A DNA stretch of 64,000 bases from assembly GCF_054482595.1 (NCBI RefSeq), contig NZ_CM137008.1, one strand, 5' to 3'. Each line of letters starts with the position of its first letter. The stretch's first letter is position 1. Shown in pieces: positions 18,729 to 55,790 of this stretch. A program made the position numbers and the translations under genes. Under the pieces are notes generated by a model, which searched no databases, was not told where the DNA came from, and was given only the letters and a program-made list of their open reading frames with translations.

Positions 18729-19913
18729 TTAACTGGCTTTAATTTCTCCATGTGGTACGACAACCCAATCAATATGGTTTTGCGTATAAATCTTGGTTGA
18801 CTTGGAGTCGCTGTGCGCCATTCGTGCTTGCGGATCGATACCTTGCTGATCGAAAAGATACGCTGCTAATGCTCTAATTTCGTGAAAGGTTGGTCTTTCA
18901 TCTATCGGTAGATTGTCGCATAAACCTAGCTTGTCACGTGTGGCTGAAAACGACCGGCTCAAATAGTCCGGTGCAACTTGAGTAGGGTGTGAAACCTCTT
19001 TGCTGCGTTTAACCTGCCGTTCAGGGATCCTGTGAACGACAAACGGACTGGCCACATTATCTCGGCTATCATCAATTATTCGTTTCAACTCTTCACCAAT
19101 CGGTATTGCAACGTGTGATGCCTCTTTTTTTTGCACTTTTTGCCTGTGGATGTAAAGCGTCCCATATATGCCATTTTGTGGTTGTTCGAACCAGACACAT
19201 CCACATATACCGTCTTTAGGTTCGCGAATTGAGTAACGGATTCGCGATACTTCGAGTCGTGCATGTGTAGTCTGCAATGCTAGGTCCATTGCTGTTCTTA
19301 ACCATGGTGCAGCGGCCTGCCTGATAGCTATAAAATGCTCGAGTGACAGGCGCCGTCTTTTCTTCTCATCAGTCCTACGCATTTTTTTTCTGATGGCCGG
19401 GTTATCCAGCATTAGTGATTCATCGACCGCATAAGAGAACAACTTTTTAAGGAAGCTGACCTTTCTGTTCTGCACATTTGCGGATGCGCAGGCATGATAT
19501 TTATTGATGTAGGTATTAACGTGTTCAAGTGCAATATCGCATGCTGGAACATTTACGAAAAACGCTTTTACGCGTAGAGCGTCATTTTTCCAGTCATCTA
19601 AGGTGCTCTGGGAAGGACGTTCGTCTTCGATAATCCGGGTCATTATGTGATCAACATGTTCAGCAAATGGTTTTGCTTCTCCGATAACACCGCCAGATTC
19701 TCTAATAAGATTATCTACTGATGGAGATAATTCTGGTCGCATCCTCAGGTTGTACTCTCTGGCGATTGCAATGGCTATTGCCCTATCCTTACCTATATTT
19801 TTCTTCTTTCCGGTAATAAGTGTGAATTTATAAACACCTCGATCTTTATCAAAAATCAGATAATCAGGAAGATGTCTGTATTCTTTTTTACGTGGCCTTG
19901 CCGCCATGGTCAC
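18729..19913 (-). CDS. int: Tyrosine-type site-specific integrase (lambda Int family)
   Basis: 394 aa; C-terminal catalytic motifs HEIRAL (HxxR) and KIYTQNH (Tyr nucleophile); lies near attL. Confidence 0.88.
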   Translation of the reverse strand: MTMAARPRKKEYRHLPDYLIFDKDRGVYKFTLITGKKKNIGKDRAIAIAIAREYNLRMRPELSPSVDNLIRESGGVIGEAKPFAEHVDHIMTRIIEDERPSQSTLDDWKNDALRVKAFFVNVPACDIALEHVNTYINKYHACASANVQNRKVSFLKKLFSYAVDESLMLDNPAIRKKMRRTDEKKRRRLSLEHFIAIRQAAAPWLRTAMDLALQTTHARLEVSRIRYSIREPKDGICGCVWFEQPQNGIYGTLYIHRQKVQKKEASHVAIPIGEELKRIIDDSRDNVASPFVVHRIPERQVKRSKEVSHPTQVAPDYLSRSFSATRDKLGLCDNLPIDERPTFHEIRALAAYLFDQQGIDPQARMAHSDSKSTKIYTQNHIDWVVVPHGEIKAS

Positions 19914-20119
19914 CCCTCATTTATTAACTTGCGAACAGCTTGACTAACCATTGAGTCGACTCCCCATTTTTCTGTTTCGCAGACAAAAACAGAACCGTCC
20001 ACGATGCGTCCCATGAGTAGACCGTTCTCGACCCAACGTTTTATCGTTCGGTTGTCAGGAATTGAGCCATTAGAGAATTCACGGCGTCCCCATTGGCTCG
20101 CTTTCATTAGTTTTGCCAT
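19910..20119 (-). CDS. xis: Excisionase (Xis-like DNA-binding protein)
   Basis: Small ORF overlapping int start by 4 nt; RWVENGLL...G motif resembles lambda/HK022 Xis winged helix; start set at MAKLMKAS (ORF could extend to 20164). Confidence 0.65.
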   Translation of the reverse strand: MAKLMKASQWGRREFSNGSIPDNRTIKRWVENGLLMGRIVDGSVFVCETEKWGVDSMVSQAVRKLINEG

Positions 20120-20180
20120 GGCTGTTTCTCCACTTAGCCCGCTGCACACGGGTAGTAATATCAAATTCCAGTCCTGATAA

Positions 20181-20396
20181 TTAATTTTGTTCTCTGGTTG
20201 CTACTTGTTTTATTGGCCTGATGCTGTCCAGGAGCAGACGGCGGCGCATGTTTGGCGCGCCCCAACGGTAACCAGTCTTTTTGTCGTAGGATTCACAACG
20301 TCCGACAACCCAGGAGGTTTCAGTGGAATGTAATTTCATCCGCTTTTCACCGTCTCGGGTGATAACAATTCCTGTATGAGTTTTTATCACGCTCAT
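20181..20396 (-). CDS. Hypothetical small phage protein
   Basis: 71-aa ORF with GGAGA RBS 8 nt upstream; co-oriented with xis and int. Confidence 0.45.
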   Translation of the reverse strand: MSVIKTHTGIVITRDGEKRMKLHSTETSWVVGRCESYDKKTGYRWGAPNMRRRLLLDSIRPIKQVATREQN

Positions 20397-20598
20397 TTTT
20401 TATTCTCCGGTGCTTTCGGCATTACTGCCCAGTGGGTAATATTGACGTTTTCAAGGTCCCCGACCTGAAATGTCCACTGCCATTCTCCGGTTTCTTTTTG
20501 CCCCCAATGTGTACCAGAGAGAACGCCAGCCAATCAGCCAGCCTTCTCCATTAGCATCAAATAACAGAACACTTTCATGTCTGTTTTGTAAAAAGGAC

Positions 20599-20633
20599 GG
20601 TACCAGCCGGAAGCAAGGGTACAAGCTGGTACC
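20599..20633. other. Strong hairpin (9-bp perfect stem) in a structured noncoding region
   Basis: GGTACCAGC ... GCTGGTACC inverted repeat with 17-nt loop, within the GC-rich, stop-codon-dense region 20400..20920. Confidence 0.4.
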
Positions 20634-20920
20634 TCCAAGACTACACACAGCATAAAGTTGTGGTGCCGGGTGCCTCCCGGTGCCTGGCGAAGGTTGCACA
20701 CCAGGCGGGTGGGTATCCACAGAAGGTCGACTGTCAGCCTCAACCTTTACCCGCGTGCGCTGAGCCGCATTCACCACAACGCTAAGGATTCTCTCTGGTT
20801 GAAAATACTTAGCTGTTATGTGCCTGCTTTTAGCCACATCAGGCGAGGTGGACCTAGTTATTCCCCAACAACAAGGATTTGGTTATTATGTAACCCTCCC
20901 CAACAACGATAAGGATTTAT

Positions 20921-21010
20921 ATGGAACGATGTGTAGATAAGTATGAGGAGAGGCATGTGCCGTTAAGGCAAAAGCCTCCAGTTCCTCCAAAACCACCCAA
21001 GGAAAACTGA
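20921..21010 (+). CDS. Micro-ORF (29 aa) encoding proline/lysine-rich peptide ending ...KPPVPPKPPKEN
   Basis: ATG preceded by AAGGA RBS at 6-nt spacing; stop 8 nt before the 21018 gene; shares the PP(K/R)P(K/R)PP motif with two micro-ORFs downstream. Confidence 0.4.
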   Translation: MERCVDKYEERHVPLRQKPPVPPKPPKEN

Positions 21011-21017
21011 GACTAAT

Positions 21018-21512
21018 ATGACCAGAGACGATTATAAATTTTATATTCACTACTCTTATGTATTGGAGAAGATGAATTACACGTTGTTAACTCGTATTGA
21101 TAAATTAATAACGTTGATGTTAATCGTTCTCGGTTTTTCAGTTTTCGCCCCGTACAGTAATTTATTTATTTTCGGTTTGTTTGTTGCCGTACTTTCGGTT
21201 CTTCAGTTGGTCTATCAGTTCGGCCAGGAGGCTGGGATGTCTAAAGAACAAGCGAGGCATTACAAAAGACTGCTGATTGAGTCTGATACTCTTTCTGAAG
21301 ATCAGTTGCAAGCTAGGTATTTAAAAATCCAAGATACCGATAGTAATCCATGGAAATCACTTGAACGAGCGGCTTTCATTCGGGCCTGCATTTTTGCTGG
21401 TGTTCCAACTAAGTACGATCTAACAACCAAAGAAAAATTTATTGCTTGGTGTGCGGGAGATCTACCTCTAGAGAATGAACTAACGGATATTAATGATGAC
21501 CAACAAGCATAA
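21018..21512 (+). CDS. Small membrane protein with two predicted TM helices (moron; possible abortive-infection/superinfection-exclusion effector)
   Basis: 164-aa ORF; two hydrophobic segments (LITLMLIVLGFSVFAP and LFIFGLFVAVLSVLQLVY) then a charged soluble C-terminus; AT-rich; opposite strand to int/xis/cI. Confidence 0.6.
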   Translation: MTRDDYKFYIHYSYVLEKMNYTLLTRIDKLITLMLIVLGFSVFAPYSNLFIFGLFVAVLSVLQLVYQFGQEAGMSKEQARHYKRLLIESDTLSEDQLQARYLKIQDTDSNPWKSLERAAFIRACIFAGVPTKYDLTTKEKFIAWCAGDLPLENELTDINDDQQA

Positions 21513-21567
21513 TCCAGTTCACGGACATGTACCTCCGAAGCCGAAACCACCGAAACCGAAGAAATGA
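21493..21567 (+). CDS. Micro-ORF (24 aa) encoding MMTNKHNPVHGHVPPKPKPPKPKK
   Basis: Overlaps the 3' end of the 21018 gene in another frame; proline/lysine-rich C-terminus. Confidence 0.35.
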   Translation: MMTNKHNPVHGHVPPKPKPPKPKK

Positions 21568-21586
21568 GACATAATAGGATTGGATA

Positions 21587-21655
21587 ATGAGTCGACCAAT
21601 AGAGCCTTTTCATATTCCACCTCGTCCCAGGCCACCAGATCCAGGCCCAAAGTGA
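21587..21655 (+). CDS. Micro-ORF (22 aa) encoding MSRPIEPFHIPPRPRPPDPGPK
   Basis: ATG preceded by AGGA RBS; proline/arginine-rich; followed by a terminator. Confidence 0.35.
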   Translation: MSRPIEPFHIPPRPRPPDPGPK

Positions 21656-21680
21656 GGGTTACTGATTTTTAAAGAGCGAA

Positions 21681-21702
21681 GCGTCCGGTAGGGCGCTTTT
21701 TT
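21681..21702 (+). terminator. Rho-independent terminator ending the small + strand moron operon
   Basis: GCGUCCGGUAGGGCGC 6-bp stem (one G-U pair) with GGUA tetraloop, followed by UUUUUUG. Confidence 0.5.
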
Positions 21703-21818
21703 GTTGCTAACGAATCATCTTGGACTTCATATGCCCCAGGCGGCTACTTCGTGAGCGTCCTGCCTGTTTGTTGTTTCTCTTGGGTACATTATGTATCTCA
21801 AAGGTACATTGTCAAGCA

Positions 21819-21842
21819 TAAAAAAACCTGCCGAAGCAGGTT
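21819..21842 (-). terminator. Rho-independent terminator downstream of cI
   Basis: Minus-strand RNA: ACCUGCUUCGGCAGGU hairpin followed by UUUUUUU, immediately after the cI stop. Confidence 0.65.
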
Positions 21843-21854
21843 CATAAACATTGA

Positions 21855-22529
21855 TTAGGCTTTGATTTTGTATCTTCTTGGTTTTCCTGAGAAAATCACA
21901 GTACCAATTATAGAGCAATTACCGTTGATCTTAATGTAAGGCTCAGGCCAGTTTGGGTTTAACGCTTTGAGATAACGCTGTGTCCCATCTTCTATCAACC
22001 TTTTGAAGGTGGTTTCACCTGTATCGTGCATCAATGCAATAACGTCGTCACCGTGGCAGGCAGGTACTTCAGGATCGACAAAAATCATGTCTCCCGGGCG
22101 GTACTCATCAATCATTGAATCACCTATCACCCGCAAGATATAAGTCATTTCCCCACAGGGTACAGGGCAGGGATACGTTTCTGCTGTGCTCAAATCAACC
22201 TCAGAATATCCAACTTCTTTCCATGCTCCGGCCTGTACCCATGATATGACAGGGACTAATGTGATTTGTTTATTAGTGATTGAAACATCAGGTTTTTTTG
22301 TGATGTTCGTTGTCTGGTGTTCTTGATCGAGCCATCCGACAGGCAGGTCGAAACATTTTTCGATGTGTCGTGCCATGCTGTCACCGATATTTTTAGTAGC
22401 ACCATCTCCCATAAACCTGCTGGTTTGGGTTGGCTCGCGATCAATCATAGTGGCAAAGGAAGAATTCCCGCCAACACCATCTCTCAGTTTTCTGGCGTTA
22501 GACCGCCGGATGTCATGGATTGTTTTCAT
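21855..22529 (-). CDS. Phage cI-like repressor (HTH plus S24 LexA-type peptidase domain)
   Basis: 224 aa; C-terminal part carries the S24 pattern (VIGDSM ... KR, Ser/Lys dyad context); divergent from the cro-like gene. Confidence 0.8.
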   Translation of the reverse strand: MKTIHDIRRSNARKLRDGVGGNSSFATMIDREPTQTSRFMGDGATKNIGDSMARHIEKCFDLPVGWLDQEHQTTNITKKPDVSITNKQITLVPVISWVQAGAWKEVGYSEVDLSTAETYPCPVPCGEMTYILRVIGDSMIDEYRPGDMIFVDPEVPACHGDDVIALMHDTGETTFKRLIEDGTQRYLKALNPNWPEPYIKINGNCSIIGTVIFSGKPRRYKIKA

Positions 22530-22565: not shown

Positions 22566-22619
22566 TATCTTGAAGGTTCATTTTAATCATGTAATATGTA
22601 TACCGGAGGTACATATTGT

Positions 22620-22820
22620 ATGAAAGCGTATTGGGACTCTTTAACCAAAGAACAGCAGGGCGAGTTGGCCGGAAAAGTTGGCTCAACACCTGGCTACTTA
22701 CGGCTGGTTTTCAATGGCTATAAAAAAGCCAGTTTTGTGCTGGCTAAAAAACTTGAGCAATGCACGTCAGGTGCAATTACGAAATCTGACTTAAGACCGG
22801 ATATCTATCCGAAAGATTAG
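22620..22820 (+). CDS. Cro-like HTH transcriptional regulator
   Basis: 66-aa product from ATG with GGAGG RBS; divergent from cI; HTH-like segment ELAGKVGSTPGYLRLVFNG. Confidence 0.7.
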   Translation: MKAYWDSLTKEQQGELAGKVGSTPGYLRLVFNGYKKASFVLAKKLEQCTSGAITKSDLRPDIYPKD

Positions 22821-49989: not shown

Positions 49990-50564
49990 CAAACGATGAT
50001 TACATCCGTCTGTTGTCGGCACTGTTGCCCCCTGGTCCGGCGTGGTCAGCCAGCGATCCGGCGATTGCCGGTGCGGCACCGTCATTAACCCGTGCTCATC
50101 AGCGTGCGGATGCCCTGATGCGGGAGCTGGATCCGCGCACCACCACCGAACTGATAAACCGCTGGGAGCGTCTGTGCGGCCTGCCGGATGAATGTATTCC
50201 GGCAGGGACGCAGACCCTTCGCCAGCGTCAGCAACGGCTGGATGCGAAGGTTAACCTGGCGGGCGGCATCAATGAGGATTTTTACCTTGCGCAGCTTGCT
50301 GCCCTGGGCAGACCAGATGCCACCATCACGCGATACGACAAAAGCACGTTCACCTGCTCATCGGCCTGTACTGACGCGGTGAATGCGCCGGAATGGCGGT
50401 ATTACTGGCAGGTCAATATGTCAGCTGCCACCAACACCACCTGGATGACATGTGGCGATCCCTGCGATTCCGCACTGCGTATCTGGGGGGACACCGTTAT
50501 CGAGTGCGTGCTTAACAAACTCTGCCCATCGCATACCTACGTAATTTTTAAATATCCGGAGTAA
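49980..50564 (+). CDS. Tail protein (Mu gp48 / YmfQ-like, DUF2313)
   Basis: 194 aa directly preceding the tail fibre gene, as e14 ymfQ precedes stfP. Confidence 0.6.
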
Positions 50565-55705: not shown

Positions 55706-55762
55706 GGGATTTTTGGTCGGCACGAGAGGATTTGAACCTCCGACCCCCGACACCCCATGACG
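55706..55762. repeat. attR: 57-bp direct repeat (overlaps 3' part of intact proL)
   Basis: Identical to 16229..16285. Confidence 0.85.
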
Positions 55763-55790
55763 GTGCGCTACCAGGCTGCGCTACGTGCCG
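55714..55790 (-). tRNA. proL: tRNA-Pro (anticodon GGG)
   Basis: 77 nt; reverse complement reads CGGCACGTAGCGCAGCCTGGTAGCGCACCGTCATGGGGTGTCGGGGGTCGGAGGTTCAAATCCTCTCGTGCCGACCA with T-loop GGTTCAAATCC and CCA end. Confidence 0.92.

Follow-up and report, generated by a model that had tools for sequence, protein, structure and literature searches.

The window analysed here is a stretch of 64,000 nucleotides (nt) from contig NZ_CM137008.1 of the NCBI RefSeq assembly GCF_054482595.1, and the finding reported below lies at that end of a lambdoid prophage which carries the immunity and integration functions. The minus-strand genes int, xis and orf71 are separated by a region of 0.5 kb (20400-20920) from a plus-strand transmembrane "moron" gene, beyond which the repressor gene and cro are located, followed by cII-like and O-like genes (Table 1). 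We report that this 0.5-kb region is a mosaic of three parts, namely the remnant of a protein gene on the left, a minus-strand RNA in the middle and repeat units on the right. In BLAST comparisons with phage genomes the region breaks at approximately 20580, and 20580-20915 matches SfIV, Kati, SfV, SfII and others at 95-99%. A reading of the same DNA made from the letters alone (the sequence-only reading) had described the region as GC-rich, structured and probably noncoding, and had proposed either a small regulatory RNA or a set of protein-binding sites. The GC content indeed peaks at 0.585 in 20600-20799, compared with 0.33-0.47 in the flanks. The noncoding character holds for approximately 257 nt (20588-20844) and does not extend to the left approximately 190 nt (20393 to ~20591), which is a decayed protein gene.

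Judged from its fold and from comparison with relatives, the segment 20588-20844 is a noncoding RNA of about 225-257 nt on the minus strand, composed of two 5' hairpins, a junction, a linker and a terminator. For 20585-20812 the minus-strand fold has a free energy of -90.3 kcal/mol (z = -3.35), which none of 200 shuffled sequences equalled, while the plus-strand fold is weaker (z = -1.89). The covariance-model search recommended with the sequence-only reading returned the Rfam family STnc100 (RF02076), which in a permissive scan matches 20810-20587 on the minus strand with 39.9 bits and an E-value of 5.9e-7; the alignment spans model positions 1-206, and the scores of relatives belonging to this subtype lie at 33-43 bits. 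No match to a known riboswitch, ribozyme or leader family was obtained from Rfam at the element. Our own covariance model of the junction, R1, has a single copy in the window, at 20653-20783 (91 bits, E 3.5e-22); a weak second candidate (50370-50485, 12.5 bits, E 0.29) falls within a coding gene and was regarded as a chance hit. Stacking of H5 on P1, with the 3' strand GGCACCA, gives the element a tRNA-like appearance, and neither ARAGORN nor Rfam reported a tRNA there.

The helices of the junction are supported by covariation. Using the motif ACCGGGARGCACCCGGCACC in viral contigs and GGTGAATGCGGCTNAGCG in species-representative genomes, more than 60 distinct cores were retrieved, which share P1, the joiner AAU, H1, variable inner helices, H4 and H5. 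RNAalifold applied to 25 diverse members gave compensatory changes in 7 of 19 pairs. In a covariance-model alignment of 66 distinct sequences, which was fitted to the model and in which H5 is partly fixed by the fishing pattern, 98.7% of the cells are paired and 11 of the 19 pairs have changed on both sides. This level of pairing and covariation was reached by none of 500 shuffles, and slid registers were 36-49% paired. The H5 variants CCUGG/CCAGG (in dicB-linked copies) and UCGGG/CCCGA entered through the second fishing pattern. The CCTGG/CCAGG inverted repeat noticed in the sequence-only reading was recovered at 20683-20705 and is helix H4 of this RNA.

Compared with STnc100 (EcOnc27/sRNA103 in O157) and with PasD1 and PasD2, the window has the same junction, with the P1 strands GGUG/CACC, the AAU joiner, H1 with its bulged A, and H5, the helices being backed by covariation. 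It further resembles STnc100 in having a linker and an intrinsic terminator after the junction and in being prophage-borne in Enterobacterales, and the full-length model aligns. It differs in that three H1 pairs are flipped from C-G to G-C with the bulged A retained, in its other inner helices, in the additional 5' hairpins P-1 and P0, and in having a DicF-type terminator. Moreover, canonical STnc100 has its own sigma-70 promoter (TTGACT/TTGACA-type) abutting P1, which is absent from the window, and is located in the late region near Q, stx and lysis genes, whereas the window element lies in the early-left (pL) leader next to xis and int.

Beyond the junction the RNA continues with a single-stranded linker and ends in an intrinsic terminator. 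The sequence-only reading had listed a perfect hairpin with a 9-bp stem at 20599..20633, and it is present at that place, as the inverted repeat GGTACCAGC/GCTGGTACC (20599-20607 and 20625-20633, with a 17-nt loop); rather than being a separate element it is the terminator of the RNA, and in the STnc100 alignment it falls on the model's own terminator. A perfect stem of at least 9 bp occurred in 4 of 200 dinucleotide shuffles of 20400-20920. The terminator stem can be extended to GGAGGUACCAGC/GCUGGUACCGUCC, the stretch 20586-20660 folds at -24.1 kcal/mol (z = -2.79), and the stem is followed by UUUUU. The relatives keep a hairpin and a U-run with wholly different stems (GGCGGUACCAG in e14, GUCGGCGUC in ST64B and GCCCGC in phiES15), the terminator stem having been replaced compensatorily in these three. 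The adjoining linker, in contrast to the variable terminator stems, is nearly invariant in the window, e14, SfIV, ST64B, phiES15, phiNP and E. coli E69. In PasD1 the seed has been mapped between the junction and the terminator (PMC8550237), and because the linker occupies the same place it is a candidate seed; the junction of PasD1 is a reduced one (27 bits with R1). No site complementary to the linker and better than chance was found in the window. For chimeras in RIL-seq or CLASH data from K-12 or EPEC the sequence of interest is UGCUGUGUGUAGUC.

The 3' module, i.e. linker and terminator, resembles DicF (RF00039), the small RNA of the Qin dicBF operon, whose terminator is of the type GGCGGUAUCAG...CCGCCCUUUUU. 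The module of e14 can be aligned with DicF over the full length of the model (28.5 bits, E 6e-5). In pairwise comparisons e14 and DicF score 37, with shuffles at 13.5 +/- 2.3, the window and e14 score 93, and the window and DicF score 22, a value as high as which occurred in 1 of 300 shuffles. Any homology of the window module to DicF is therefore by transitivity, through e14; the window module is a more derived copy that is plainly homologous to that of e14. In E. albertii (locus L132) and E. coli E69 (locus L160) an Rfam DicF lies directly upstream of a junction variant; these two score 39-43 bits on the DicF model (39.1 for E69), and the DicF-like RNA of E69 carries the linker of the present locus (UGCUGUGUGUAGUCC) on a DicF-type terminator. 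The likeness to DicF comprises a short seed and terminator module in a repressor-controlled, pL-like leftward operon of a lambdoid prophage, adjoining the same junction core. The differences are in the seed, UGCUGUGUGUAGUCUU in the window and UUUCUGGUGACGUUU in DicF, and in the order of the modules, since the core precedes the DicF-like module here and follows DicF in Qin.

Table 1. Features of the region and of the adjoining prophage genes
Feature	Position	Strand	Remarks
STnc100-type five-helix junction core	20657..20780	-	Rfam STnc100, own model R1, covariation
P1 closing helix, GGUG...CACC	20772-20780 with 20657-20665	-	encloses four arms
H1, 5 bp with bulged A	20753-20768	-	loop UNWGC
H2/H3 arm	20705-20754	-	H2 encloses inner hairpin and H3
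H4 (CCTGG...CCAGG)	20683-20705	-	
H5, CCGGG-AGGCA-CCCGG	20666-20680	-	loop AGGCA
5' extension	20782..20844	-	block conserved in e14, SfIV and phiES15 (Cronobacter)
Hairpin P-1 (GCCUG...CAGGC)	20822-20844	-	
Conserved single-stranded ACAUAACAG	20813-20821	-	
Hairpin P0	20782-20812	-	
Conserved linker UUUAUGCUGUGUGUAGUCUUGGA	20634..20656	-	candidate seed and candidate RNase E entry site
Intrinsic terminator, DicF-like 3' module	20588..20633	-	stem GGUACCAGC/GCUGGUACC, then CCUUUUUAC
pL-like leftward early promoter, TTGACA-16-CATAAT	21788..21815	-	11/12 consensus positions; identical in e14
Two tandem repeat units CCCCAACAAC(GAT)AAGGATTT	20851..20920	+	Shine-Dalgarno-bearing 5' untranslated units of the divergent moron
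5'-truncated, frameshifted remnant of early-left gene of phrog_583 ('Eae'/SfVp29-like, ~120 amino acids)	20393..~20591	-	PHROG profiles; outside RNA
orf71, 71-amino-acid gene of phrog_1226	20181-20396	-	
xis	19910-20164	-	
int	18729-19913	-	
Transmembrane "moron" gene	21018-21512	+	
cI-type S24 repressor	21855-22529	-	
cro	22596-22820	+	followed by cII-like and O-like genes

With respect to transcription, the RNA is located downstream of the pL-like promoter and upstream of orf71, xis and int, and the plus-strand moron cassette (~20920-21700) is inserted between the pL leader and the RNA. The promoter lies just past the terminator of the repressor gene and is overlapped by GTAC operator-like sites, whose half-sites are common to the cI/cro intergenic region; between pL and the RNA the minus strand showed no further sigma-70-like promoter. 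Neither does the conserved block 20813-20851 contain an acceptable -10/-35 pair. Two further candidates were rejected: the motif TGGC-N9-GGCA, which has a sigma-54-like spacing, is conserved in neither e14 nor P1, and a weak TTATCG-16-CATAAT at ~20912-20885 is present only in the cassette of SfIV, Kati and the window.

The element was detected in 1914 of 5426 complete E. coli genomes (about 35%), and the same layout is present in e14 of K-12, SfV, SfII, SfIV, ST64B and phiES15. In SfIV, Kati, ST64B, phiES15, 118970_sal3, mEp460 and e14 it is always located downstream of the repressor, at the 5' end of the early-left genes and in the same orientation as these. Most copies in genomes are annotated as a hypothetical protein, and several phage records carry no annotation there. 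In K-12 the e14 copy (NC_000913.3 1201185-1201455; locus L131, 3501-3771), with a slightly decayed H5, is overlain by ymfH (b1142, 'putative protein'). The e14 genes ymfH, xisE and intE are co-induced after DNA damage, dependent on LexA cleavage (PMC11228462), and belong to one iModulon (PMC12133099); transcription therefore crosses the element on induction and partly reads through. A second K-12 junction is located in the Qin dicF-dicB spacer (NC_000913.3 1649451-1649585; locus L206, 1952-2086; 63 bits with R1, E 3e-16), straight after the DicF terminator and approximately 25 nt before the dicB start codon, with P1 extended to ~20 bp. Phage P1 has the junction at ~69996-70236 (locus L005, 2420-2660), in the ban operon and 27 nt upstream of the TerB-like gene tciA. 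The arrangement of hairpin, ACAYAACAG and P0 recurs with other stem sequences in the copies of phage P1, Pantoea and Buttiauxella.

From the covarying structure, in which no frame is conserved, together with the terminator, the location within the operon and the homology to experimentally verified Hfq small RNAs, we consider it probable that the element is a leader RNA which attenuates transcription of xis and int and from which an Hfq-type small RNA is released, as DicF is. Inactivation of the cI-type repressor would cause the promoter at 21815-21788 to fire, and RNA polymerase would run antisense through the moron cassette into the element, where P-1, P0 and the junction would fold. Most transcripts would end at the terminator (20599-20633 and its U-run), by which orf71, xis and int would be attenuated to a degree set by read-through. 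The stable RNA so released may then be cut back by RNase E within the AU-rich linker (CUUUAUG), giving a DicF-like species of ~65 nt, which would act in trans together with Hfq through the linker UGCUGUGUGUAGUCUU. DicF is itself cut from the transcript of the pL-like dicBp, by RNase III to a 190-nt form and by RNase E to a 53-nt form, and has a terminator-like 3' end, and the PasD1, PasD2 and STnc100 copies are Hfq-dependent and were detected by Northern blot (PMC8550237; PMC5331693).

Several observations weigh against this leader and small-RNA model. The window scores 39.9 bits on STnc100, below the gathering score of 47 bits. The DicF model aligns full length to 20649-20595 at 11.5 bits (E 2.5), which is not significant and does not reach its gathering score of 48 bits. 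Since there is no promoter directly upstream of P1, the RNA would be silent in the stable lysogen. The linker may pair with the upstream ACAUAACAGC; long-range pairing with the 5' motif (ACAYAACAG) is predicted in folds of e14, phiES15 and Buttiauxella, and such pairing would hide the putative seed. In a duplex test with the ftsZ leader (-80..+40) neither DicF nor the linker beat shuffled sequences; the genuine DicF failed as well, and the test has no power. Finally, some junctions have no terminator. Three architectures can be distinguished: promoter, core and terminator (canonical STnc100); leader, core, terminator and genes (this locus); and a core followed after 25-60 nt by a ribosome binding site (RBS) and an open reading frame (ORF) without any terminator. 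To the last belong K-12 dicF-dicB, tciA of P1, copies before TerB-like and small membrane-protein genes, and copies before sb37-like genes of Buttiauxella.

Because the terminatorless junctions lie right before an RBS they favour a role in cis, and a conceivable, if rather unlikely, alternative is that the junction is mainly a modular, cis-acting domain of the 5' untranslated region, as opposed to a small RNA acting in trans, and sets read-through, processing, stability or translation of the genes that follow, for example by binding a host or phage factor or a ligand. The following terminator or RBS could, as tentatively, serve as its expression platform. The nearly invariant nucleotides (GGUGAAU, the bulged A, UNWGC and AGGCA) belong to the junction, bulge and loops and not to the stems, as is typical of cis-acting leaders, and xisE and intE of e14 are induced despite a terminator stem of 11 bp, i.e. 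read-through occurs. Carried further, the junction could be a modular cis-acting leader domain of temperate-phage operons, located before terminators or RBSs (ymfH to xis-int in e14, the Qin dicF-dicB spacer, tciA of P1, and the early-left genes of ST64B, SfV and Buttiauxella), which senses or recruits a host factor or ligand and so sets read-through, processing or translation, an extension that we regard as doubtful; K-12 would by the same, equally tentative, view carry two unrecognised copies of the domain, one of which is listed as a protein gene, ymfH. On the other hand, the lack of a match to any known riboswitch or leader family, noted above, argues against a cis-acting role, no function is common to the genes downstream, a conserved alternative (antiterminator) pairing was looked for and not found, and the canonical family members exist as discrete and abundant small RNAs that are bound by Hfq and have many partners in trans. 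The put element of phage HK022 is a two-stem RNA of ~70 nt that is present downstream of both pL and pR. The present RNA resembles put and lambda nut in being structured and located in the leftward early leader, here of a phage without a recognisable N gene, and differs in being followed by its own terminator, yielding discrete small RNAs in relatives. A put-like antiterminator was rejected since there was no BLAST or R1 similarity to HK022 and only a single copy in the window, with none past pR.

It is very unlikely that the hairpin and the repeats are DNA sites for the repressor, Int/Xis or another protein that set int/xis against moron expression, as the second proposal of the sequence-only reading would have it. 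We found no evidence for such a set of sites; GTAC sites of the operator-like kind lie ~1 kb away, together with the strong promoter, at 21775-21820. The GGTAC(C/A) motifs in the hairpin do resemble cI/cro operator half-sites, but the GTAC half-sites are arranged tail to tail, which is the wrong arrangement. Repressor operators in the hairpin are ruled out by the mismatch between hairpin and immunity region: Kati has the same hairpin and a different immunity region, and e14 has the same immunity region and a different loop. The 17-nt repeat unit is present in three copies (20774-20790, 20863-20879 and 20901-20917), which are 76-88% identical, and a three-copy family appeared in none of 60 shuffles of 20400-20920. 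Copy 1 is explained by RNA helices, being the complement of the 3' arm of P0 and the 5' strand of P1, and copies 2 and 3 by divergent RBSs, each with AAGGA and then a start codon on the plus strand. The proposal that the last copy supplies the RBS of the first micro-ORF (20921-21010) was borne out, and a role of the repeats as regulatory sites was not. Moreover, the segment 20851-20920 is common only to phages of the SfIV and Kati type; homology to SfV-type relatives ends at 20851, and these lack copies 2 and 3. Equivalent repeat units provide the RBS in two relatives, for ymfI in e14 and for a divergent, unannotated ORF in phiES15.

That the region encodes a protein, in the form of the 128-amino-acid minus-strand ORF as the counterpart of K-12 YmfH, is hardly credible in spite of the RefSeq annotation of ymfH and of most other copies and of the finding that over-expression of a ymfH clone triggers the retron-Sen2 toxin RcaT (bioRxiv 10.1101/2020.06.22.160242), since no frame is conserved among the homologues, the substitutions follow base pairing, and the retron phenotype could equally come from the RNA. 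Specifically, indels of 1 nt in ST64B and e14 and of 5 nt in phiES15 lie inside the ORFs, and e14 ymfH shares the 128-amino-acid frame of the window up to H5, where a 1-nt deletion shifts it. The plus-strand ORF of 84 amino acids has no match to a PHROG family. Accordingly neither ORF is a gene, in agreement with the view that the ORFs of the region are not protein-like.

The only PHROG match of the 128-amino-acid ORF is its last third, which lies in the phrog_583 remnant: residues 83-115 of the ORF 20451-20837 match profile positions 56-88 (E 2.3e-14), and the ORF 20393-20533, in another frame, matches positions 83-119 (E 1.4e-19). As the two frames match consecutive parts of the 120-position profile, this is a 5'-truncated and frameshifted pseudogene. 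At the nucleotide level 20400-20579 aligns with 94-97% identity to the 3' portions of the genes for 'Eae protein' in phages 2H10, 1720a-02 and mEp460, and in relatives the sequence after ...CCUUUUUACAAAACAGA runs on into sb37-like early-left genes. These genes have been lost here by a deletion that ended beside the terminator and fused the RNA terminator to the middle of a phrog_583 gene (~20580). The prophage is without the sb37, DUF2303 and phosphatase early-left genes that are present in relatives, and the stop codon of the remnant overlaps the start of the phrog_1226 gene (ATGA).

STnc100, PasD and DicF are already known, and a preprint from 2026 links PasD to STnc100. We did not find in the papers searched the sub-threshold early-left subtype, its fusion to a DicF-type module with another seed, its identity with K-12 ymfH or the junction between dicF and dicB, and no small RNA described at the e14 locus was found in the ymfH/xisE literature. 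The element ties together STnc100/PasD and DicF, which have been treated as separate families until now, and besides E. coli it is present in Shigella serotype-converting phages and in Salmonella ST64B. A terminator-ended RNA directly upstream of xis and int could set the rate of excision after induction. Recognition of the element as an RNA would correct the annotation of ymfH and may explain why the ymfH clone triggers the retron toxin. As K-12 carries two junction copies, in e14 and in the dicF-dicB spacer, the function is directly testable there.

Relatives also show parts of the element on their own. In mEp460 (locus L008, 2853-3059) the terminator is kept and the junction is degenerate (22 bits with R1), and phiNP (locus L009, 2501-2577) keeps the linker and terminator without a junction, in an unannotated gap of 1 kb; the 3' module and the junction are thus exchanged independently. 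ST64B (locus L003, 2720-2865) and e14 (locus L131, 3760-3890) have a second P0-like hairpin after the terminator, ACAGARAAGAG...GUGCUCUUYUCUGU, and then GUGGAGAAAC, an arrangement resembling a second unit whose junction has been deleted. At the same place Buttiauxella has a short upstream ORF (13-14 amino acids) ending at the RBS of the sb37-like gene. A boxA-like UGCUCUUU forms the 3' arm of P0 in the P1, Pantoea and Buttiauxella copies; in the window it is degenerate (AAUCCUUAG), and a boxA in P0 was dismissed there. In phage P1 a dicF-like region is annotated as well, 1.2 kb upstream of the junction. ST64B carries isrK RNA near the replication genes (locus L003, 21-97, minus strand).

The pL leader itself has a 5' block, AACAGGCAGGACGCYCACGAAGUAGCCGCC...GAUGAUUCG, at 21700-21775 on the minus strand (locus L003, 2170-2227; locus L009, 1848-1912), which is common to SfIV, Kati, phiNP, ST64B and 118970_sal3 across different immunity types and whose hairpin, of the CCNGG type, covaries (CCUGG/CCAGG, CCCGG/CCGGG and CCGGU/ACCGG). 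Directly after a further hairpin (21678-21699), CGCUCUUUAA at 21669-21677 on the minus strand matches the consensus for boxA in nut and rrn antiterminators; the corresponding sequence in SfIV and Kati is AGCUCUUUAACAA, and GCTCTTTAA occurs three times in the window compared with 0.48 expected. Since e14 and ST64B have no match to this boxA it may belong to the moron terminator.

Three proline-rich micro-ORFs flank the moron gene on the plus strand, 20921-21010 (...QKPPVPPKPPKEN), 21493-21567 (...HVPPKPKPPKPKK) and 21587-21655 (MSRPIEPFHIPPRPRPPDPGPK), and these may function as arrest peptides, as leader peptides or as small effectors. The last resembles the core, PRPRPP, of proline-rich antimicrobial peptides from insects (apidaecin, oncocin), which act in the ribosome exit tunnel. 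Finally, a tRNA-Pro(GGG) gene and an L25 ribosomal-protein leader are located at 55714-55790 and 59506-59531, respectively, both on the minus strand and presumably in the host flank.

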